Shown here piece by piece: positions 1 through 63,158 of a stretch of 64,000 nucleotides of DNA. The notes beneath the pieces were generated by a model. It worked only from the letters and a program-made list of their open reading frames with translations. It made no database searches and was not told the origin of the DNA. Source of the DNA: Clostridium sp. 1001271st1 H5 (GTDB lineage Bacteria; Bacillota; Clostridia; Lachnospirales; Lachnospiraceae); the NCBI RefSeq assembly GCF_005845215.1, contig NZ_SPHO01000015.1:57908-121907 (forward strand), read 5' to 3'. The stretch's first letter is position 1. The number at the start of each line of letters is the position of its first letter. The position numbers were made by a program, and so were the translations under genes.

Positions 1-21
1 TATCTTTCATAGGCTCTCCCT

Positions 22-951
22 TCATCGTTCCTGATCTCGTTGGCGTTTTTTCTGCCATTGTTCCAGCAGTTTAATAATGGTTTCCTGCATTTTGGCCGGT
101 GTATAGCTTTTGGGGAAATACTTTCGCAAGGTATCGCTGCTCAAGGTCACTTTATCCAGATCACCCTTTTTTTCCTCTGACATGATGGCAAGCATCACAT
201 CTTCTGACAATTTCCCGTCCTGGCTGAACTTTTTCATTCGCTGAGCCTGAGAAAGAGAAGGGGTGGCCTGCTCATAGTCCATTGTTTCCACCAGCATTTG
301 CTGTTCGTCCGGTTTCAAAAAAGAGAGTTCATAGGCTGGATTAAATGCGATTTTCTTTTCATCCACCATATCCAAAAGCTCTGGAATCAGCTCAGTCAAA
401 CGAACATATCGCATTACCTGAATACCGCTTCGTTCACCGGCTTCTTTTGCCACCTGGTCTCTGGCGCTCAACTTCTGTTCAACTTGAACAGAAGTCAGGT
501 CTGTTCTTGCTCCTTGATGTTTAATGGCTTCCAGCTTCATTTTGTAGGCAAAAGCCCTTTCACTGGGGAGCAGATTTTCTCGCTGCAAATTGCTGTCAAC
601 CATAATAATTGTGGCAGCATCGTCATCCAAGTCGCGCACAATGACAGGCATGGTTTCTTTTCCGGCCAATTCGCTGGCTCTGCGGCGTCTGTGACCGGCT
701 ACCAGCTCATAACCGCCATCAGGCAGTGGTCTGGCAATCGCAGGAACCAAAACTCCATACTTTTTGATGCTGTCTGCGGTTTCTAACATTGCATCATCAT
801 CCTTGACCTTGAAGGGGTGATCCTTGAACGGATGCAGTTCAGATAGGGGAATTTCCTGAATTTTTTCCAGTTGCTCGTCTTGCCGACTTTCTTCAGTAGA
901 AAACAGGTCATCTACTGAGGCCAGCTCTATTTTTTTCGCGCTGCTTTTCAA
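22..951 (-). CDS. ParB-like partition protein, mobile-element type (N-terminal ParB/Srx domain)
   Basis: Translation contains the HPFK...GVLVPAIARP...YELVAGHRRRRA ParB N-domain signature (GxxRxxA box). The 3' end overlaps the adjacent ParA ORF, as in parAB operons. Confidence 0.8.
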   Translation of the reverse strand: MKSSAKKIELASVDDLFSTEESRQDEQLEKIQEIPLSELHPFKDHPFKVKDDDAMLETADSIKKYGVLVPAIARPLPDGGYELVAGHRRRRASELAGKETMPVIVRDLDDDAATIIMVDSNLQRENLLPSERAFAYKMKLEAIKHQGARTDLTSVQVEQKLSARDQVAKEAGERSGIQVMRYVRLTELIPELLDMVDEKKIAFNPAYELSFLKPDEQQMLVETMDYEQATPSLSQAQRMKKFSQDGKLSEDVMLAIMSEEKKGDLDKVTLSSDTLRKYFPKSYTPAKMQETIIKLLEQWQKKRQRDQER

Positions 952-1729
952 GTTTCAATACCTCCTTCGTCAGATTTTTGTAGCCCTCAGCCACTTTGCC
1001 ATTAGGATCATGGGCATAAATGCTTTTTCCTTCAGCACTGATTTCTTTAGCCCTGACAGAATGAGGAATTTCTGATGTAAACACCTTGATCTTACTGCCA
1101 TAGGTTTCGCGCAGGAGAGCGGAGATTTCTTTGGCAAAATTGGTTCGGCTGTCTACCATCGTCAGCAGAATCCCATCAATTTGCAGCTTGGGATTGATTT
1201 GTCTGCGAACCTTATTGATAGTTTGCAAAAGCTGCTCTAAACCTTTAGCGGGAAGATACTCTGCCTGGACGGGGATTATAACCCTATTAGCGGCAGCCAG
1301 TGCATTGACCGTAAGCATACCCAGGGAGGGCTGGCAATCAATAAGGATATGGGAGTATTGCCCCTTCAGCGTGTCCAGATATTGTCGCAGAATGGTTTCT
1401 CGGCTCATAGCGTTTACCAGAGATACCTCCATACCAGATAGCTGGATGTCCGCAGGCATCAGGTCTACGCCCTCAGGGTGGTGCAGGATACCCTCGCCGG
1501 GACGAATTGGTTCATCCATCAAAATACGGCCCATAGCGTCTGACAGTGTAAAGGGCAGCTTGTCAGGTTGGGGATTGCCCAAGCTGATGGTCAGGCTTCC
1601 CTGTGGGTCTCCGTCAATCAGAAGGACTTTCTTCCCAGACTGAGCCAGACCAATTCCAAGATTGGCACAAGTGGTTGTTTTGCCGACACCACCTTTTTGG
1701 TTGGCTATGGCAATAATCTGTGTATTCAT
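908..1729 (-). CDS. ParA/Soj-family partition ATPase
   Basis: N-terminal deviant Walker A KGGVGKTTT, with DGDPQGSLT and the C-terminal ParA fold motifs. It sits directly upstream of and overlapping the ParB-like gene. Confidence 0.85.
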   Translation of the reverse strand: MNTQIIAIANQKGGVGKTTTCANLGIGLAQSGKKVLLIDGDPQGSLTISLGNPQPDKLPFTLSDAMGRILMDEPIRPGEGILHHPEGVDLMPADIQLSGMEVSLVNAMSRETILRQYLDTLKGQYSHILIDCQPSLGMLTVNALAAANRVIIPVQAEYLPAKGLEQLLQTINKVRRQINPKLQIDGILLTMVDSRTNFAKEISALLRETYGSKIKVFTSEIPHSVRAKEISAEGKSIYAHDPNGKVAEGYKNLTKEVLKLEKQREKNRAGLSR

Positions 1730-2071
1730 AATTTCACCTCATTTCTTTCTAAGTTTAGATATGAAAAAAAGTGCCTGCTCTACCTTTCCTGAGAAAGATA
1801 AAACAGGCACTTTTATTGGCTCAATACCTCTTGTAATGAGCCTCTATGTATGGTAGACTATGTCCACGAGACCATAAATATAATTAAGTCCCGACGGGAA
1901 TTGAACTTTTGGCTAACGCTAAAATTCGCGCCTTTGCAAACAGAGTGCAAACAATAGGGGGCTAAAATCCTTTGTTTTTGCTTGATTTTGCTTGTACGAG
2001 GTTTACAGTGAATGTGGAGAAATGCCTTGATATAACTGCATTTTCTTTATCTCCGTTGATAGGGAATATAT

Positions 2072-2126
2072 GCACTGGGTCCATCTCCTAAGCGGAAGGC
2101 CAGCGGTTCGAATCCGCTCAGGAACA
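2072..2126 (+). tRNA. Truncated tRNA 3' fragment (T-arm AGCGG-TTCGAAT-CCGCT plus 3' acceptor strand), probable att-site remnant
   Basis: A canonical T-stem-loop (GGTTCGAATCC) followed by a 7-nt acceptor 3' strand is present, but no complementary 5' acceptor strand or D/anticodon arms upstream. A native tRNA-type terminator follows immediately. Confidence 0.45.
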
Positions 2127-2134
2127 TACAAAAA

Positions 2135-2180
2135 CACGCCGGAAACCCTGGTTTAAGGGGCTCCGGCGTGTTTTCTTTTC
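2135..2180 (+). terminator. Rho-independent terminator (tRNA-type)
   Basis: GC hairpin ACACGCCGGA...TCCGGCGTGT followed by TTTTCTTTT. Confidence 0.6.
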
Positions 2181-2332
2181 CGTTTGCCAAAATTGTACAG
2201 GGCTGGGCAGCTGACCTATATACAGCTATAAGGCTACAAATGCTGCAGTTAAATTCATTTTTTATTTCTCTTTTGCCGTACACCTTCTGCGTGTCAGACA
2301 TATATTATCATAAAAGCACCAACTGAGGACCA

Positions 2333-3196
2333 TTGTATATGAATAACAATAACCCCTACTCTGAACCGTTACTTAGGATGACCCAGGCAGAAGACCCGAT
2401 TGACCCAGGTTTCACATATCCTGACACTGAAATGATGCTTCCGTCCCCTGACGATGATATCGACCCTGATTTTTCAGTCATGCCTCCTTACTATCCGGAC
2501 TACCCCGTACGTCCTGATTATCCGGTACGCCCTGACTATCCCGTCCGTCCGAATTACCCTGTGCACCCCTATCCGCCATATTATCCCATCCCCTGCGTGT
2601 TCTGCAATAATAACCAGTGGATTCACGGCGGAATACGCCTGTTAAACGGGGCCACCGGGTATAACCCATTTACCGTGTATATAGATAACCGGCCAGTATT
2701 CTCCGGGTTGGAGTTTTCTGAAGTGACCCAGTACCGCCAGCTGTCCCAGGGCTACCATACCTTCTCCGTCATGGGCTCAAACGGCTATGTATATCTCCGC
2801 AAATCCATGTATGTTGGCGACGGAATGGCCACCATTGCCATTGTCAACTCCTCCACAGGCCTGGACCTGGTATCCATCCAGGATACGGCCTGCCCCACGG
2901 ACCGGACCTCTGCCTGTTTCCGGGTCTGCAATTTAGCCTACTACAGCGGGCCCATCAATGCCTCCCTGGGCAATATTTACTTTAACTCAATCAACTTTGC
3001 CGATGCAGCCAGCTTCAGCCGGCTCAGCTCCGGCAGCTATACCCTGCGTGTGGCCCGTTCCGCCCGGCCGGAAAATACCCTGGTTACCACGCCGGTAACA
3101 CTGAATCCCTCCCGGATTTATACGCTCTATGTACTGAACTGGAATCCTTCCGTGGATACCATACAGACACTTCTGGTGGAGGACCGGAGAAGCTAA
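2333..3196 (+). CDS. DUF4397-like hypothetical protein with N-terminal PDYPVRP heptad repeats
   Basis: A 287-aa ORF with a Pro/Tyr-rich repeat N-terminus (PDYPVRP x4). The C-terminal half resembles clostridial DUF4397 proteins (YIDNRPVFSGLEF...). Its own terminator follows. Confidence 0.5.
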   Translation: MYMNNNNPYSEPLLRMTQAEDPIDPGFTYPDTEMMLPSPDDDIDPDFSVMPPYYPDYPVRPDYPVRPDYPVRPNYPVHPYPPYYPIPCVFCNNNQWIHGGIRLLNGATGYNPFTVYIDNRPVFSGLEFSEVTQYRQLSQGYHTFSVMGSNGYVYLRKSMYVGDGMATIAIVNSSTGLDLVSIQDTACPTDRTSACFRVCNLAYYSGPINASLGNIYFNSINFADAASFSRLSSGSYTLRVARSARPENTLVTTPVTLNPSRIYTLYVLNWNPSVDTIQTLLVEDRRS

Positions 3197-10646: not shown

Positions 10647-11477
10647 TTAAACAGAGCCCCCCTTATCCATCTCAGGCATTCCCGGCCCATTCTTATCAGA
10701 AGGCGCACATCCAAACATCTTTTTGTAAGCCCTGAAAAAGCTGGAGTAGTCTCCGAAGCCTGCCCTGGACGCCGCCTCTGCTGCCGGCGCCCCCATGGCC
10801 AGTTCTTTCCTCACAACAGCCATGCGCTTATAGAGGATATACCGGGCCACCGTGGTTCCCGTGGCCCTCTTAAATACAGCAGTCAGATGGTTCTTACTCA
10901 TATAGAAGGTCTGTGCCAGCCCCTCCAGTGTCAGGGATTCAGAGAGGTTCTGGTTGATATAGCGGATGATTTCCTGGACCTGCCCCTCCTTTCCCCTGGA
11001 TGTCCCTGCCGCCTCCCTGTACATTGCAAAAATCTTAGTCAAAAGAGACAGCACCCGTGTGCGGATTGCAATATCCTGTAAATCCTTTCCATAGCCCCCG
11101 CACTCCTCCAGGGAATGGAAGTACCACTCCAGCTGAAACTGTTCCTCATAACAGCACCATCCTGTCCCAAAGGGCTTCAGCAAAAGGGCCTGCTCATTTT
11201 CCTCCAGAAGCTCCGGTGCAACGTGCAGCCGTATCCGGTTGTATTCATCCGAATCCAGGACCCTTAACCCGTGAAAGCAGCCAGGCGGTATGATAATCAG
11301 GCTCCCCGGCCTGGGCGTGTAGGTCCTGCCCTCCAGCAGATACTCCACATTGCCTGAAATCATGTAATAAACCTCATAGACATCATGGCAGTGCATCCTG
11401 TACTCCATATCCGCCTCGTCGCTGCGCGTATGGGCATAGACCACCTTCTGCGTCTTAAAGCTCTCTTCCTGGTACAT
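10647..11477 (-). CDS. AraC-family transcriptional regulator (cupin sensor + HTH_AraC)
   Basis: A C-terminal double-HTH AraC signature (IRYINQNLSESLTLEGLAQTF...) and an N-terminal cupin-like domain. Confidence 0.85.
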   Translation of the reverse strand: MYQEESFKTQKVVYAHTRSDEADMEYRMHCHDVYEVYYMISGNVEYLLEGRTYTPRPGSLIIIPPGCFHGLRVLDSDEYNRIRLHVAPELLEENEQALLLKPFGTGWCCYEEQFQLEWYFHSLEECGGYGKDLQDIAIRTRVLSLLTKIFAMYREAAGTSRGKEGQVQEIIRYINQNLSESLTLEGLAQTFYMSKNHLTAVFKRATGTTVARYILYKRMAVVRKELAMGAPAAEAASRAGFGDYSSFFRAYKKMFGCAPSDKNGPGMPEMDKGGSV

Positions 11478-13079: not shown

Positions 13080-14366
13080 TTAGTTTCCCTGATTCATCAC
13101 TGACTCGATTCCTGCTATCTTCACGCACAGAATGAATATGTCCATGGCAGCCTTCAGTTCCTCCGGTGTGGGATAGGTGGGCGCAATGCGGATATTCCTG
13201 TCCTCCGGGTCTTTTTTGTAAGGATAGGTGGCTCCTGCGCCTGTGAGCGTGACACCGGCCTCCCCGGCCAGCTGTACCGTGCGCTTCGCACATCCCGGGA
13301 GGGTGTCCAGGGAAATAAAATAACCTCCTCTTGGATGGCTCCACACCGCCAGTCCGGTCCCTTTCAGCTCTTCCTCCAGACGGTCCAGCACCATGTCAAA
13401 TTTGGGCCTCAGCACATCTGCCAGTTCCTTCATATGGCGGCGGATGTTCTCCGGCGTCTTAAAATACTGCACATGCCTTAACTGGTTCAGCTTGTCATGT
13501 CCGATGGTCTGGGAGGACATATGTCCTTTCAGCTCCTTCATGTTGTCCGGGCCTGAGGCAACCAGGGAAACGCCTGCTCCCGGAAACGTTATTTTGGAGG
13601 TTGAAAAGAAATAGTAGGCCCTGTCCGGGTGTCCGCAGGCCCGGCATGCATCCAGGATGTTCTTAAGGGCCACTTCACCGTAGATATGATGTACGCCGTA
13701 GGCATTGTCCCAGAATATCCTGAAATCCGGGGCAGCTGTCTCCATGGCTGCCAGACGGTCCACCACCCGGTCGCTGTAGCAAACGCCCTGGGGATTGGAA
13801 TGAAGGGGAACACACCAGATTCCCTTGATGGACTCATCCTTTCCTGCCATGGCTTCCACCATATCCATGTCCGGCCCGTCCTCCAGAAGAGGTACGGGAA
13901 TCATCTGGATTCCCAGCTCCTCGCAAATCTGGAAATGCCTGTCGTAGCCGGGCACAGGGCACAGGAATTTTACCGGACTGCCCTCATATCCGTAATGGCT
14001 CCATGGCTTTTCTCCGCCGGTCCCAAAGAGGCAGTGAAATGCAATGGTGTCAAACATCAGGTTCAGGCTGGAATTGCCCCCCATGATAATCTGGTCCGGA
14101 TTCAGCCCCAAAAGCTGTCCAAACAGACGCCTGCATTCCGGAATCCCTTCCAGGACGCCGTAATTCCTTGTGTCCGTGCCGTCCTCCAGCACACAGTCCT
14201 TCGGAAACTCCAACAGGCCCATGTTCATATCCAACTGGGCTGCTGCAGGCTTTCCCCTGGCCATATTCAGTTTCAAATTCAGTTTCCTGGCTTCCTGAAA
14301 CTGTATGGTAAGCTCTTTTAACATATCATGCAGTTCCTGTCTGGAATATTCCGTTACATGGTTCAT
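13080..14366 (-). CDS. PLP-dependent aminotransferase (aspartate aminotransferase-like family, PF12897-type)
   Basis: A 428-aa protein with STSKITFPGAGVS containing the PLP lysine. A 40-bp gap to the downstream gdh suggests an operon. Confidence 0.7.
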   Translation of the reverse strand: MNHVTEYSRQELHDMLKELTIQFQEARKLNLKLNMARGKPAAAQLDMNMGLLEFPKDCVLEDGTDTRNYGVLEGIPECRRLFGQLLGLNPDQIIMGGNSSLNLMFDTIAFHCLFGTGGEKPWSHYGYEGSPVKFLCPVPGYDRHFQICEELGIQMIPVPLLEDGPDMDMVEAMAGKDESIKGIWCVPLHSNPQGVCYSDRVVDRLAAMETAAPDFRIFWDNAYGVHHIYGEVALKNILDACRACGHPDRAYYFFSTSKITFPGAGVSLVASGPDNMKELKGHMSSQTIGHDKLNQLRHVQYFKTPENIRRHMKELADVLRPKFDMVLDRLEEELKGTGLAVWSHPRGGYFISLDTLPGCAKRTVQLAGEAGVTLTGAGATYPYKKDPEDRNIRIAPTYPTPEELKAAMDIFILCVKIAGIESVMNQGN

Positions 14367-14496
14367 TCATTGCCTCCGCATCAAACATTTGTCAGATATA
14401 TTTGTTCTTGCCTTTATTATAAAAATAACCTAGAATAAAAACAAATATTTATATTTGAATAAAACTTATAATTAAAAACTTATAGGAGGTGCAGCT

Positions 14497-15462
14497 ATGT
14501 TCAGCGGGATGAATTATGTGTATGAAGTCTATAAGGAACAGAGCTTTTCCAAGGCTGCTGAGAACCTTTACATATCCCAGCCAGCCCTCAGTTCCATGAT
14601 TAAGAAGATAGAGACAAAGGTGGGAATGCCGCTTTTTGACCGGAGCACCAGTCCCATCCAGCTGACCGAGTGCGGCAGGAAATACATCAAGACAGCGGAG
14701 AAAATCATGGACCTGGAAAATGAATTTGCCTACTATGTGGGCAATCTCCAGGAGCTGAAAACCGGGCGGCTGTCCGTAGGCGGCACCTACCTCTTTTCCT
14801 CCTTCATCTTTCCTCCCATTATTGATAAATTCCGCAGGGCGTATCCTCACGTGAAGCTGAACCTGTTCGAGGGCCACACCCCTTTGCTGGAGCAGAAGCT
14901 CTTTGCCGGGGAACTGGACATTATCATTGACAATTATCTGCTGGATGCGGGCATCTACGAAAAGGAGCGGTTCATGGAGGAACGGCTGCTGCTGGCCGTC
15001 CCCTGCTCCTTTGACAGCAACCGGCGTGCAGTGAAATACCAGCTGAAGGCTGCCGACATAAAGCGCTGCCTCCACCAGAACGACACATTTCCGGCCGTAT
15101 CCTTAAAGAAATTCAAGGATGAGCCCTTTGTGATGCTGCGTTCCCACAACGATACCAGGGAACGTGTGGACGCCATACTGGGCCGGGCCGGAATCCAGTT
15201 AAACTACACCTTAAAGCTGAACCAGCTTTTAACCACCTATCACCTGACAGAGTACGGCATGGGCGCCTCCTTTGTCAGCGACACCGTGGTCAAGTGCCTT
15301 CCGGAAAACCCGGATATCATATATTATAAGATTGACGACCCTGAGGCGGTAAGGGAGGTCTACCTGTATTACAAAAAAAATAAATACCTGACCCGGAGCA
15401 TGATTGAATTCATCAAAATGGCCATTCCGGGCATTGAAAAAAACTCTGAGAAATATCTATAA
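14497..15462 (+). CDS. LysR-family transcriptional regulator
   Basis: N-terminal HTH YEVYKEQSFSKAAENLYISQPALSSMIKKIE. It is divergent from the aminotransferase-gdh operon, and a 10-bp direct repeat AAAACTTATA x2 lies in the shared promoter region. Confidence 0.9.
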   Translation: MFSGMNYVYEVYKEQSFSKAAENLYISQPALSSMIKKIETKVGMPLFDRSTSPIQLTECGRKYIKTAEKIMDLENEFAYYVGNLQELKTGRLSVGGTYLFSSFIFPPIIDKFRRAYPHVKLNLFEGHTPLLEQKLFAGELDIIIDNYLLDAGIYEKERFMEERLLLAVPCSFDSNRRAVKYQLKAADIKRCLHQNDTFPAVSLKKFKDEPFVMLRSHNDTRERVDAILGRAGIQLNYTLKLNQLLTTYHLTEYGMGASFVSDTVVKCLPENPDIIYYKIDDPEAVREVYLYYKKNKYLTRSMIEFIKMAIPGIEKNSEKYL

Positions 15463-15529
15463 GCGTATGCTTATAAGTGTTATAAACAGCATTTTTGTCA
15501 AAAAAAAAACACATACGGGGGTAAGAAAT

Positions 15530-17410
15530 ATGGTAGGATGGCCAGAAATCCTTAAGAAGGAAAACCTGACAAGAGAAGAGAAAAAATGTATCTGCAACCG
15601 GCTCATGACCACGGAAAGCCATATGGAGCAGCTGATACTGAAGCATTTCACGGAGGAGGATTTCCGCCGGGTCTGGATGCGCAAGATTGGAGGCGGCGTC
15701 ATCGGCGGAAAGGCCTGCGGCCTTTTAGTGGCCAGGAAGCTGATTGAGATGAACATGCCGGAATACGCCGGACATGTGGAGCCACATAACTCCTTTTTCA
15801 TTGGCACGGATGTGTTCTACCGGTATCTGGTGTATAACCGCTGCGCGGAATTAAAGGCCAGGCACCGGCTGGAAAAGGAACATTTTAAGGAAACAGAGGA
15901 GCTGACCAGACGGCTGCGAAACGGCTCCCTTCCCGAAGATATCCGGGAAGAGCTCAGCGACATGCTGGACCACTACGGAACCACCCCCATCATTGTCCGC
16001 TCCAGCAGCATCATGGAGGACGGATACGGCAATGCATTCTCCGGCAAATATGAATCCATTTTCTGCATGAATCAGGGTACCAAGGAGGAACGGATGGAGG
16101 AACTGGAGGAAGCCATCCGCCGGGTCTACGCCAGCACCATGAATGAACAGGCCATTGAGTACCGGAGGAAACGCCATTTGTTAGATGTGGATGAGCAGAT
16201 GGCCCTGCTGGTCCAGCAGGTGGCGGGCCAGCAGTACGGTGACCTCTATATGCCGGTGGCAGCTGGTATGGGCTGTTCCTACAACCCTTACAAATGGATG
16301 GAGCACTTAAACCCTGAGGCAGGAATGCTGCGCATGGTCATGGGATTAGGCACAAGGGCAGTGGAAAGGACACCCGGCGATTATCCGCGCCTCATCGGCC
16401 TGGACAGGGCCCAGGCCAACCTAAGGACCACCCTGGCTGAACGCCACAAATTCTCCCAGCGCAAGGTAGATGTCCTGGACTTTGGCACTAAGACGCTCTG
16501 CACCAAATCCCTGGAAAAAATTCTGGACCTCTTTCCCAAATGGCAGAAAAAAATGGTCCTCAGCAGGGACACGGATGCCGAGGACCTGCTGGCCGAGCGC
16601 CACATTTACAGGACCATCTATTTTGCGGACTGCCAGGGCCTGGTGGACAACCTGGAGTTCATACGCATGATGCGCTCCCTTATGAAGATGCTTGAAAAAG
16701 AGTATGAGCGTCCCGTAGATGTGGAGTTTGCCGTCACCAGCCCGGAGGAAGGCGTGTGGAGGCTGAACCTGCTGCAATGCCGCCCCCTTCAGACCGCCAA
16801 ATCCGAGCAGGTACATATACCGGACGGCGTGGACCATGAATTCCTCTTTGATGTCCGCAGGACCTCCATGCGCCGTTCCAAGGAGGAGCGCATCGACTAT
16901 ATTGTGTGGGTGGACCCGCAGAAATACTATGAATATGAATACTCCCGGAAACCGGATGTGGCCCGCCTCATCAGCCGCATCAACCAGCATTTTGAGGACA
17001 CGGATAGGAAGCTGATGCTTCTGGTGCCGGGCCGTATCGGGACATCCTCCCCGGAACTAGGCGTACCCGTGGTCTATGCGGAAATCAGCCAGTTCAGCGC
17101 CATCTGCGAGGTGGCCTATGGAAAAGCCGGCTACCATCCCGACCTCTCATACGGCAGCCACATGTTCCAGGACATGGTTGAGGCGGATGTGTATTACGGT
17201 GCCATCAATGACAACAGCAAGACCAGGCTGTACCACCCTGAGCTTCTTTCCAAATACCCAGAGGTGTTAAGGGACATCCTGCCCGATGAATCCCAGGAGC
17301 TGGCTGACATCGTAAAGGTCCATGACATAAGCCAATCCAGGGCCACCCTGACCCTGGATGCCCAGGAGGGCCGGGCCGTGTGCCGGATACGCGGCGCAGA
17401 GCAGGAATGA
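15530..17410 (+). CDS. PEP/pyruvate-binding domain protein (pyruvate phosphate dikinase N-terminal domain family)
   Basis: Contains GGGVIGGKACGL and the SSSIMEDGYGNAFSGKYESIFC motifs of the PPDK_N/PEP synthase ATP-grasp region. Start chosen at ATG 15530 after the LysR stop rather than the overlapping upstream ORF start. Confidence 0.7.
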   Translation: MVGWPEILKKENLTREEKKCICNRLMTTESHMEQLILKHFTEEDFRRVWMRKIGGGVIGGKACGLLVARKLIEMNMPEYAGHVEPHNSFFIGTDVFYRYLVYNRCAELKARHRLEKEHFKETEELTRRLRNGSLPEDIREELSDMLDHYGTTPIIVRSSSIMEDGYGNAFSGKYESIFCMNQGTKEERMEELEEAIRRVYASTMNEQAIEYRRKRHLLDVDEQMALLVQQVAGQQYGDLYMPVAAGMGCSYNPYKWMEHLNPEAGMLRMVMGLGTRAVERTPGDYPRLIGLDRAQANLRTTLAERHKFSQRKVDVLDFGTKTLCTKSLEKILDLFPKWQKKMVLSRDTDAEDLLAERHIYRTIYFADCQGLVDNLEFIRMMRSLMKMLEKEYERPVDVEFAVTSPEEGVWRLNLLQCRPLQTAKSEQVHIPDGVDHEFLFDVRRTSMRRSKEERIDYIVWVDPQKYYEYEYSRKPDVARLISRINQHFEDTDRKLMLLVPGRIGTSSPELGVPVVYAEISQFSAICEVAYGKAGYHPDLSYGSHMFQDMVEADVYYGAINDNSKTRLYHPELLSKYPEVLRDILPDESQELADIVKVHDISQSRATLTLDAQEGRAVCRIRGAEQE

Positions 17411-41977: not shown

Positions 41978-42195
41978 ACAAAAAACAAAGTCCGCAGCAA
42001 TTGCGGACTTGAAAATATCTATAAATCTTCAAATCCTCTTATTGCTCGACCAAGCATGCTTTATCCTACCAGCATACTCCTCGCTCAGGCTGGCACCTTC
42101 CGGCCCTTTCGCATATCATGCCGATATACTCAACCGGGGTTGCCGTGACTTCACAGGTCCTTTGTACCTCCATCACTCTGAATAAGGGATATTTA
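41978..42195 (-). promoter_or_regulatory. SAM-I (S-box) riboswitch with terminator expression platform, leader of metK
   Basis: The minus-strand read CTTATTCAGAGTGATGGAGGTACAAAGGACCTGTGAAGTCACGGCAACC... matches the S-box consensus (CTTATCAAGAG.GG.GGAGGGA...GCAACC). GTGCCAGCCTGAGCGAGGAGTATGCTGG matches the AtggtGCCAA.tCC core. Terminator hairpin GTCCGCAATTGCTGCGGAC plus a T-run. Confidence 0.8.
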
Positions 42196-61467: not shown

Positions 61468-62388
61468 CTAGCGAATTGATTCAATCATTTCCACAATCCG
61501 CTCTAATTCTGCTTCAGAATAATATTCAATTTCAATGCGTCCTTTATTTTTATCCTTGTTGTGGATGCTGACCTTTGTACCCATGACGCTCTTCATACGC
61601 TCTTCCAGGCTCTGATATATCAAGGCTAATGCCTCGTCCTTAGATTTGTCCTTCTTTTCTTCTCCTGTCTCTGCTTCCTTTGCCAGCCGTTTTACAAGAC
61701 GCTCTGTTTCTCTGACGCTGAGTGATTCATCCAATATCATCTTTGCAGCCTTCAGCTGAAGTCCTTTATCTTCCAATGACAATAGCGCTCTGGCGTGACC
61801 GCTGGAAATAAGATTCTGAATCAGCATCTCCTGTATTTGGCCATCCAGTTTTAAAAGACGCATGGAATTGGTGATGGTGGCTCTGTTTTTCGATACCCTG
61901 GCCGCTATTTCCTCCTGGGTCAGCTTAAATTCAGATACAAGACGCTGATATGCCAAGGCCTCCTCAATAGGATTCAGGTCAGCTCTCTGCACATTCTCAA
62001 TCAGTGCTATTTCCATGCTTTCCTGCTTGTTGTACTCCCGCAGAACAACCGGTATTTCCTTTAATCCAGCTATCTTGGCAGCACGCCATCTGCGTTCTCC
62101 GGCAATAATTTCATAAAATGTCCCCTTTTTCTGAACCAAAAGGGGCTGCAAAATACCATATCGTTTAATGGAATCAGCCAGCTCTGCCAGCTGTTCTTCG
62201 TTAAAATCCTTTCTGGGCTGTTCCCTATTGGGTTCAATCAAGGCCATTTTCACCAATAATTCCCCGCTGTTGCCATCTCCTTTATCAGTGGTAGCTGCCT
62301 TTGCCTTTGCAATCTCCTCTTCGCTTTCCTTTATGACATCTTCTCCAAAGATGGCTCCCAATCCTTTACCCAATCCTTTTTTAGCCAT
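61468..62388 (-). CDS. spo0J: Chromosome partitioning protein ParB/Spo0J
   Basis: ParB box (YEIIAGERRWRAAKIAGLKEIPVVLRE), an HTH region, and a C-terminal dimerisation domain. It abuts soj. Confidence 0.9.
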   Translation of the reverse strand: MAKKGLGKGLGAIFGEDVIKESEEEIAKAKAATTDKGDGNSGELLVKMALIEPNREQPRKDFNEEQLAELADSIKRYGILQPLLVQKKGTFYEIIAGERRWRAAKIAGLKEIPVVLREYNKQESMEIALIENVQRADLNPIEEALAYQRLVSEFKLTQEEIAARVSKNRATITNSMRLLKLDGQIQEMLIQNLISSGHARALLSLEDKGLQLKAAKMILDESLSVRETERLVKRLAKEAETGEEKKDKSKDEALALIYQSLEERMKSVMGTKVSIHNKDKNKGRIEIEYYSEAELERIVEMIESIR

Positions 62389-63158
62389 TACAACTCTTCT
62401 CCTCTGCTCATAACTTCTGCCGCAAGCATTCTATAGCTCTCAGCCCCCGTTGACCTTGAATCGTAAAGATTAATAGACATGCCATGACTGGGTGCCTCAG
62501 CCAGGCGTACATTTCTTGGTATAATGGTTTTATATATTGTTCTGTTTAAGCTGCTTTTAACACTTTCCACTACTTCCAGTGACAGATTTGTCCTTGCATC
62601 GTACATGGTAAATACCACGCCTTCTAATTCCAACTCCGGATTCAGTTTTCTCTTAACCAAATCCACAGTTTTTAACACCTGATTGAGTCCCTCCAAAGCA
62701 TAATACTCACACTGTATAGGAACCAGTACGGTATCTGCGGCCGTCAGTGCATTTATAGTCAGTATATTTAGAGATGGGGGACAATCAATGATGATAAAAT
62801 CGTATGTATCTCGAACTTGATTCAGATAGCTGCTCAGAAGCTTTTCCTTATTCTCGACTTCCTGAAATTCAATCTCTGCTCCTGCCAGATTCATATCGGA
62901 AGGAAGCACGTCCAGATTTGGCTGTATTTCCTTAATAATGCATTCATCCACAGATGCCTCTTCAATCAGCATGTCGTAAACAGTCCTATCAAAATCTTCC
63001 TGTTCCAGTCCCAGACCACTACTGGCATTTCCCTGGGGGTCAAAATCCACCAGCATAACATGTTGTCCTGCTTCAGCCAGACAGGCAGAAAGATTAATGG
63101 CTGTTGTCGTTTTACCAACCCCACCCTTCTGATTGGCTATTGTTATGATTCGTCCCAT
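62388..63158 (-). CDS. soj: Chromosome partitioning ATPase ParA/Soj
   Basis: MGRIITIANQKGGVGKTTTAINLSACLA and DFDPQGNASSGLG. Start trimmed to the Met of MGRIITIAN. Confidence 0.9.
   Translation of the reverse strand: MGRIITIANQKGGVGKTTTAINLSACLAEAGQHVMLVDFDPQGNASSGLGLEQEDFDRTVYDMLIEEASVDECIIKEIQPNLDVLPSDMNLAGAEIEFQEVENKEKLLSSYLNQVRDTYDFIIIDCPPSLNILTINALTAADTVLVPIQCEYYALEGLNQVLKTVDLVKRKLNPELELEGVVFTMYDARTNLSLEVVESVKSSLNRTIYKTIIPRNVRLAEAPSHGMSINLYDSRSTGAESYRMLAAEVMSRGEEL

Follow-up and report, generated by a model that had tools for sequence, protein, structure and literature searches.

The 64,000 nucleotides of contig NZ_SPHO01000015.1 from Clostridium sp. 1001271st1 H5 that were analyzed here (the window) carry, at positions 1–2084, what is very probably the ParA/ParB end of an integrative and conjugative element (ICE). 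The ICE is read as having entered a tRNA-Arg(CCU) gene by a crossover within a core in the anticodon loop, by which the host tRNA was split and replaced by a tRNA that the ICE brings with it. Positions 1–3000 were read directly; the window begins about 2 kb inside the element, and the far end is known from sister copies only. As a class, an ICE boundary at a split tRNA is ordinary, and the spare-tRNA design, with the arrays of orphan tRNA 5′ halves apparently left by it, is its interesting by-product.

The ICE junction and the orphan tRNA half

Positions 2085–2126 (plus strand) are an orphan 3′ half of the native host tRNA-Arg(CCU); the same sequence forms the 3′ end portion of an intact tRNA-Arg(cct) in four contigs of the same species (L011, L013, L014, and L015; L-numbers denote compared loci or contigs from an assembly collection or a metagenome, and P-numbers denote database proteins or clusters). 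The piece consists of the loop CTCCTAA, the anticodon-stem strand GCGGA, the variable region AGGCC, the T-arm AGCGG-TTCGAAT-CCGCT, the acceptor strand CAGGAAC, and the discriminator A, with neither an encoded CCA nor a 5′ half. Behind it stands the native intrinsic terminator of the tRNA gene (2131–2184, plus strand), a nested hairpin at 2131–2174 followed by a T-run, which is identical in L011 (9794–9850); for the 102-nt stretch 2084–2185, the minimum free energy comes to −47.1 kcal/mol (z = −5.5). ARAGORN found no tRNA over the whole window, and Rfam around the junction (about 2006–2179) gave sub-threshold matches only, driven by the T-arm and the terminator. The first host gene past the junction, outside the element, encodes a DUF4397 protein (2339–3196, plus strand; Pfam DUF4397, E 8e-29) and served as the anchor for the look-up of empty sites; its product begins with an N-terminal run of PDYPVRP-like proline-rich repeats. 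In the four same-species contigs, the DUF4397 protein is 100% identical, the ICE is absent, and an intact tRNA-Arg(cct) has the DUF3881 gene on one side and the DUF4397 gene on the other. The window equals these contigs from 2085 on, past the terminator and as far as the DUF4397 gene, base for base over the stretch compared.

The junction can therefore be written as attB (…GAGCGTCCGC / CTCCTAAG / CGGAAGG…) in the empty sites and as attR (…CTGGGTCCAT / CTCCTAAG / CGGAAGG…) in the window. Within the species the site is polymorphic: it is empty, holds the same ICE with the same junction as the window (L016), or is occupied at the same core by another element, whose tyrosine integrase has 457 aa (L012). 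A preliminary description of this DNA, made from the sequence alone, had recognized a tRNA 3′ fragment at about 2072–2126, a tRNA-type intrinsic terminator behind it, and the lack of a 5′ half, and had read them as the mark of an element inserted at a tRNA gene's 3′ end. The terminator and the missing 5′ half stand as described. The fragment is present as well, as a longer piece of the tRNA that runs from the anticodon loop (2085–2126), and the empty sites bear out the junction between a mobile element and a split tRNA, except that the crossover lies in the anticodon loop.

On the element side, the junction is formed by the ICE attachment arm (1730–2084, plus strand), the ParA side of attP, which ends in …GGGTCCAT and was delimited by comparison of ten independent copies (L001–L010). 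All ten equal the window outward from ParA to position 2092, except for one base at window position 1816. Beyond 2092 their flanks diverge, and by alignment and motif scan each flank is a different tRNA 3′ half, with T-stems that change in a compensatory way (AGCGG/CCGCT, GCTGG/CCAGT, GCAGG/CCTGT, and others) and, in some, an encoded CCA. Since the identity of the copies ends at 2092 and their flanks are tRNA 3′ halves, element-specific sequence ends at 2084. The 8 bp between, CTCCTAAG (2085–2092, plus strand, from the junction comparison), comprise the tRNA-Arg(CCU) anticodon loop and the first stem base and are the only sequence common to attB (L011), attR (the window), attL (L330, L234, and OY725843.1), and all host variants. 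Integrases with an anticodon-loop crossover reportedly form a class described by K. P. Williams in 2002.

A repeat search of the arm returned three direct repeat pairs on the plus strand: GCTAAAAT at 1918 and 1961, TGCAAACA at 1935 and 1946, and TTGnTTTTGC at 1972 and 1982. These are candidate arm-type binding sites for the integrase or Xis. The 8-mer TGCAAACA occurs twice in the window arm and twice in the integrase-side arm of the sister copies, a distribution that would fit two arms of one attP. When a second arm was sought through clusters of GCTAAAAT and TGCAAACA, the matches were only copies of the same arm. L016 carries a variant of the ICE in which CCCTG replaces CTCCG at window positions 2052–2056 (L016 9–88 corresponds to window 2048–2127); ARAGORN calls an 80-nt pseudo tRNA-Arg there, made of ICE arm and host 3′ half, and does not call the window version. 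The ICE arm is thus a weak mimic of a tRNA 5′ half.

The ICE genes begin directly inside the arm, on the minus strand. The first gene within the element at this end encodes a ParA-like Walker ATPase of 273 aa (908–1729; Pfam AAA_31, E 4e-55, and CbiA, E 1e-27), and the second a ParB-like protein of 309 aa with a TTG start (22–951; Pfam ParB_N, E 1.3e-19). The two open reading frames overlap by 44 nt, and the features of a ParABS-type pair are present by Pfam: a Walker-type ParA and a ParB with an N-terminal ParB domain, in one operon. ParA is 100% identical in all ten copies. At 1–10 stand the first codons (ATGAAAGATA, minus strand) of the next ICE gene, annotated as DUF5720 in the gene tables of sister copies, and the reverse complement of window 1–40 equals L004 from 10931–10951 onward; the element therefore extends upstream of the window. 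Just upstream of ParA, the arm contains a long stable hairpin with T-runs on both sides (1764–1817; found by the terminator scan and as inverted repeat I1), and the fold of 1760–1822 reaches −31.8 kcal/mol (z = −8.1). The hairpin probably shields the ICE genes against read-through.

The composition of this end also differs from that of the host. The GC content of 1–2083 is 0.457 vs. 0.495 for the remaining window, and 6.7% of equal-sized windows are as low; the GC content at third codon positions (GC3) is 0.48 in ParB and 0.50 in ParA vs. 0.63–0.66 in the next four host genes, and it separates ICE genes from host genes much better than overall GC. A second, soj/spo0J-like ParA/ParB pair lies on the minus strand at the other side of the window (62409–63152 and about 61945–62253), with 39% (ParA) and 35% (ParB) identity to the ICE proteins. 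The preliminary description had already placed a ParA/ParB-like operon at 22–1729, which Pfam confirms for both frames, had noted the chromosomal soj-spo0J pair some 60 kb away, and had called the operon an accessory second copy; this last view is sustained by the ICE pair, which many unrelated hosts share at 100% identity and sister strains lack, so that it is not syntenic. Its impression that the first 1.8 kb or so are AT-richer is clear in GC3 and only mild in overall GC. By family membership, ParA and ParB would presumably stabilize or position an excised, replicating form of the ICE. For annotation, the first 2.1 kb or so of the window should be treated as foreign DNA, the tRNA-like piece at 2085–2126 as a gene fragment and not a gene, and the ICE ParAB pair should not be confused with the chromosomal soj/spo0J.

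The far end in sister copies and the integration model

The far end of the ICE is visible in four sister copies (L234, OY725843.1, L330, and L331), which lie in four other host contexts. The order there is a host 5′ half, the core, a 62-nt spacer, a complete tRNA-Arg(CCU), a terminator, an arm with TTGCTAAC and TTGCAAACA repeats, a tyrosine integrase of 463–465 aa, and an HTH_17 Xis-like gene. In these copies, attL reads …GAGCGTCCGC / CTCCTAAG / GTT[A/G]TGCTCTACC…, followed by the spacer and the ICE tRNA. The integrase is 99% identical in three hosts, belongs to a cluster of 3042 member sequences (P0242), and has the Pfam domains Phage_integrase, two SAM-like domains, and a weak arm-DNA-binding domain; its neighbor is the HTH_17 gene. 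The ICE tRNA is identical in three hosts and is called tRNA-Arg(cct) by ARAGORN. Compared with the native tRNA, it has compensatory changes in all stems and an encoded CCA, which the native gene lacks, and its 3′ half differs from native 2093–2126 at nine of 34 positions (about 74% identity). The preliminary description had predicted an integrase and an intact tRNA at the other end, with an identical direct repeat of 40–60 bp embedded in that upstream tRNA. A tyrosine recombinase and an intact tRNA do occur there in the sister copies, although the tRNA is a separate, ICE-borne copy; judging by these copies, in which attP and attB share only the 8-bp CTCCTAAG, no long repeat is expected, and the search proposed for it would have come out negative in spite of a correct main idea.

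The longest of the four comes from an assembly of Subdoligranulum variabile. One PLSDB record of this assembly (OY725880.1) holds the ParA/ParB end of the ICE at 98.2% identity and stops inside VirD4, and a second record (OY725843.1) begins at the exact VirD4 position where the first stops. The second continues for 38.3 kb in the direction of the ICE, so that the whole S. variabile element would measure about 45 kb. Its far end holds the HTH_17 gene (145 aa), the tyrosine integrase (465 aa), an arm with four copies of TTGCTAAC and two of TTGCAAACA, and the terminator, then the complete tRNA-Arg(cct), the 62-nt spacer, CTCCTAAG, and a tRNA 5′ half that is complementary, in its acceptor and anticodon-stem strands, to the 3′ half found at the ParA end. 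OY725880.1 was also considered as a circular molecule with the ICE running across the record origin; this was rejected when 150 kb were read, as the record ends in VirD4 and the remainder is host DNA. Although labeled a circular plasmid, the record has the character of a chromosomal contig with its end inside the ICE. It also contains two identical tet(W) genes at a distance of 8 kb (L138 10757–12673 and 18768–20684; OY725880.1 60757–70684).

Both ends are found together in L234, a metagenome contig of 7.7 kb with a deletion derivative of 3.3 kb. From one flank to the other it reads host 5′ half, core, spacer, ICE tRNA, terminator, integrase-side arm, truncated integrase, Bro/ANT, truncated ParB (135 aa), full ParA, ParA-side arm, core, and host 3′ half, and the two flanking host halves are mutually complementary. 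In Enterocloster bolteae 90A9, the same integrase module lies beside a DUF3881 gene. The flanking chromosome is about 90% identical to L011, which makes the site orthologous to that of the window; the window's species has the identical host 5′ half, and over its final 8.2 kb the element shares 95% DNA identity with the S. variabile copy. Another integrase, that of L010 (470 aa, with TTATTAGCA arm repeats), was tried as the ICE's own, with its junction as attP, and rejected: in L022 and L128 the same integrase, arm, and 3′ half adjoin a host 5′ half, and in L144 they adjoin the arm of another element. Because this module recurs without the ICE, L010 is a tandem of two elements. Relatives of the L010 integrase (P0144 and P0121) mark further tandems.

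Taken together, these sequences suggest the following course of events. The ICE would have entered the presumably single-copy tRNA-Arg(CCU) site of an Enterocloster-like Lachnospiraceae chromosome, with a lambda-type tyrosine integrase, the HTH_17 Xis-like protein, and arm-type sites exchanging strands within the 8-bp CTCCTAAG. The window junction would then be attR, composed of ICE arm, core, native 3′ half, and native terminator. The far end of the window's own copy would hold the integrase, ICE tRNA, and spacer as the sister copies do; in this genome, the 5′ half GTTTCTGTAGCTCAGCAGGATAGAGCGTCCGC is predicted beside the DUF3881 gene, followed by core, spacer, and the ICE tRNA GTCTCTGTAGCTCAGCAGGATAGAGCGTTCGCCTCCTAAGCGAAAGGCCGTGGGTTCGAATCCCGCCAGGGACGCCA. 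The host tRNA would thereby be split into two non-functional orphan halves and be functionally replaced by the ICE tRNA, which would start about 100 nt downstream of the native tRNA start and so would probably be transcribed from the native host promoter. Precise excision between the two outer cores would restore the host tRNA gene. The anticodon loop of the ICE tRNA is itself a third copy of the core, and recombination at this inner core would leave behind a cassette of spacer and 5′ half. Such cassettes would explain the arrays of orphan 5′ halves seen in many Lachnospiraceae, and one locus supports this: L270 reads ICE arm, core, ICE spacer, ICE 5′ half, core, host 3′ half, the order that would be expected if recombination had once used the inner core and left a cassette and the ICE had later re-entered.

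Conjugation genes, host range, and alternative readings

In the assembly collection, the identical ParB is found in 1035 blocks in many different chromosomal contexts; the ten places listed represent six genomic contexts. Downstream of ParB, these copies encode DUF5720, DUF6017, Bro-N/ANT, DUF3801, VirD4, Maff2, TrbL_2, a DNA methylase, PrgI, and VirB4, a gene set that identifies a conjugative element. Marker genes of the Tn1549 family (VirD4-like PF02534/PF12696, VirB4-like PF12846, Maff2, VirB6-like, and PrgI) follow the identical ParA/ParB in L004 and L010, and most long contigs carry VirD4 and VirB4 downstream. The type IV secretion system (T4SS) genes of the sister copies fit the Tn1549 family. 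The copies are themselves targets of insertion. In several, VirD4 is interrupted by a Tn4451-like element (L003, L005, and L007, at about 13747–16200; L002 14813–16630 is also cited); these nested mobile elements carry a large serine recombinase, TnpW/TnpV, and a relaxase of their own. One ICE copy contains a group II intron.

The host range was approached by a metagenome scan whose query joined the final 25 nt of the ICE arm to the core, and which returned at least 120 contigs. Among the matches listed, 100 of 120 contigs continue into sequence that satisfies strict structural criteria for a tRNA 3′ half, about six more have minor variants of the T-loop, and about 13 others continue from the arm into other locus material, mostly cassettes of spacer and tRNA 5′ half. 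The same matches include at least 47 distinct tRNA-Arg(CCU) 3′ halves joined to the ICE arm, with 18 different anticodon-stem strands. As judged from these junctions, the ICE targets the tRNA-Arg(CCU) anticodon loop across a very wide range of gut Clostridia and requires little sequence to the right of the core. Its occurrence with an identical ParB on at least 47 tRNA-Arg(CCU) variants in human-gut metagenomes would mark it as a major vehicle of gene transfer with a universal landing pad, and the 8-bp core with the spare tRNA is a candidate broad-host-range integration module for gut Clostridia. ParB relatives in IMG/VR are at most 82% identical, lack the tRNA-Arg junction, and have unrelated sequence upstream of ParA; they were set aside as uninformative on the att module. 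More distant relatives of the ICE (ParA 56–72% identical) occupy the same tRNA in the opposite orientation (L096 2685–6301, L052 1988–5400, L121, and L252), with ParAB on the same side as the element's own tRNA.

Several points weigh against the reading of an ICE that has split and replaced the host tRNA. The far end, the integrase, the ICE tRNA, and the completeness of the element are not visible for the window's copy, and deletion derivatives such as L234 exist. In the 10-kb stretches that were read, no relaxase, MOBP7 and PF03432 included, came to light directly. The only join between the two S. variabile records is that their matches abut at one and the same VirD4 position, and this copy is without recognizable T4SS genes after TrbL. 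A scan of the 62-nt spacer for a consensus sigma-70 promoter found none, so that expression of the ICE tRNA is inferred. The arm repeats are invariant among copies, and their conservation is thus uninformative on a role as binding sites. As to the relaxase, two database gene calls (P0283 and P0284) fuse a 99%-identical integrase with PF03432, which hints at a relaxase nearby; inserted elements account for the MobA_MobL relaxases of L001 and L003.

The first alternative is that the window holds a decayed remnant, a ParAB-bearing stub beside a tRNA fragment with nothing mobile left in the genome. The deletion derivative L234 and the loss of most T4SS genes from the S. variabile copy show the kind of decay that this would require, and the window displays no more than 2 kb of the element. 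Yet ParB is full length here and cut to 135 aa in L234, the next ICE gene starts at 1–10 as it does in complete copies, and VirD4 and VirB4 lie downstream in most long contigs; a remnant is therefore unlikely. The second alternative is a classical tRNA island, in which the element would carry a 40–60-bp copy of the tRNA 3′ end, the tRNA would be rebuilt at attL, and 2072–2126 would be the displaced duplicate. It would show the same general arrangement of an element, a tRNA 3′ fragment, and a native terminator, and other elements at this very site work in this way (for instance, that of L010, L022, and L128, with a 3′ half and terminator immediately before the integrase-side arm). In all four sister copies with a visible far end, however, a 62-nt spacer of non-tRNA sequence and then a complete, separate tRNA come after the core, no more than 8 bp are shared, and the 3′ half of the ICE tRNA differs at nine of 34 positions, which leaves an island of this type very improbable. 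That the tRNA-like stretch is a chance resemblance or a part of the element, with the boundary elsewhere, is hardly credible: it could appeal to the lack of a significant ARAGORN or Rfam tRNA call in the window, but the empty sites match base for base from 2085 on, where the stretch lies within an intact tRNA, and element-specific identity ends at 2092 in copies from other hosts.

Known systems and the tRNA-Arg(CCU) locus

This ICE and its proposed split-and-replace integration have parallels in three known systems. ICEs of the Tn1549 family with names ending in _tRNAarg have been described in Faecalibacterium, with tandem or nested ("matryoshka") composites (PMC12084326). The present ICE resembles this family in the VirD4, Maff2, VirB6-like/TrbL, PrgI, and VirB4 module of the identical-ParB copies, in its very wide spread among Lachnospiraceae and Oscillospiraceae, in integration at tRNA-Arg, and in frequent tandem or nested composites with mobilizable elements inside the ICE (PMC12084326). 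It departs from the definition of the family in that neither a MOBP7 relaxase nor topoisomerase III was seen in the stretches read. Crossover in the anticodon loop and a replacement tRNA borne by the element are not described in the main text of that source (PMC12084326).

The closest parallel to the use of the tRNA is the tRNA-dependent lysogeny of actinobacteriophages (Fionnbharth, Cluster L; Guerrero-Bustamante and Hatfull, 2024), in which the common core is about 10 bp, the host tRNA is not reconstructed, and a phage tRNA of the same isotype is required (PMC10865867). Shared with the present ICE are a lambda-type tyrosine integrase with arm-type sites (candidate sites in the ICE), an attB in a host tRNA gene, a common core of about 8–10 bp with no functional tRNA rebuilt (ARAGORN calls none at the window's attR), and a complete tRNA-Arg(cct) on the element, here seen in sister copies. 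Unlike these phages, the present element is conjugative and resides in Clostridia; its spare tRNA is separated from the attP core by only 62 nt and so stands just behind the orphan host 5′ half after integration, and the anticodon loop of the spare tRNA is a second copy of the core. As for dependence on the spare tRNA, tRNA-Arg(UCU) might cover AGG codons. Among the matches listed for literature using the term tRNA-dependent lysogeny, no title or abstract concerned a conjugative element, and a split-and-replace strategy was not found described for ICEs in the literature searched.

Classical tRNA islands, conversely, regenerate their target through an identity block of 30–45 bp over the 3′ part of the tRNA (PMC4383910; PMC10865867). 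The tyrosine integrase and the displaced tRNA fragment at the distal end are as in islands of the Islander/TIGER type (PMC4383910). The anticodon-loop sublocation is shared with the integrase class attributed above to K. P. Williams. Unlike in Islander-type islands, the identity block here is 8 bp, both host halves are orphaned, and no tRNA is rebuilt by fusion. Tools that seek long tRNA direct repeats would miss or mis-delimit elements with an 8-bp core and a spare tRNA.

The tRNA-Arg(CCU) locus was also surveyed at large with a scan for the 5′ half plus core in one genome per species, which gave 119 loci (126 matches), all but a handful labeled Lachnospiraceae or related Clostridia. About 85 of the 126 matches continue into a normal 3′ half and about 35 into other sequence, of at least 25 kinds. 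In 40 of the 119 species loci, the scan met arrays of two to four orphan 5′ halves, each ending in CTCCTAAG, before one complete tRNA. The spacers in these arrays measure 40–550 nt, and the same spacer cassettes recur in different orders across species (examples among L017–L135: L022 6183–6314, L085 438–651, and L113 6816–7512). Just downstream of many arrays lie integrases that are 35–74% identical to one another, and tandems of different elements at the same core occur in L005, L010, L142–L144, L252, and L279. It is somewhat probable that a widespread ICE family of gut Clostridia "splits and replaces" tRNA-Arg(CCU) with a spare tRNA placed 62 nt from the attP core, as the ICE counterpart of phage tRNA-dependent lysogeny, and that alternative recombination at the core repeated in this tRNA can leave the cassettes behind. 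If this is true, arrays of 5′ halves would be a readable fossil record of earlier mobile-element visits at one locus. Just downstream of the ICE junction in L219, L258, L319, and L254, there is a second element-borne tRNA-Arg(CCT), which is atypical in having an unusual D-arm (GTCTCCTTAGTTAAATGGATATAAC…) and belongs to another element family that inserts at the same core.

Elsewhere in the window, an intergenic tRNA-like stretch at 32946–33012 (minus strand) matches the Rfam family YrlA (Y RNA-like) below threshold (39.4 bits, with a gathering score of 69; E 2e-7). An RtcB RNA-ligase gene stands immediately upstream of it, and a divergent WYL-domain gene is close by (neighbors at 33193–34434, minus strand, and 34710–35993, plus strand); the stretch may belong to an Rtc RNA-repair locus as its Y-RNA-like partner. 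A SAM riboswitch at 42058–42188 (minus strand) scores 57.5 bits, above the Rfam gathering score.

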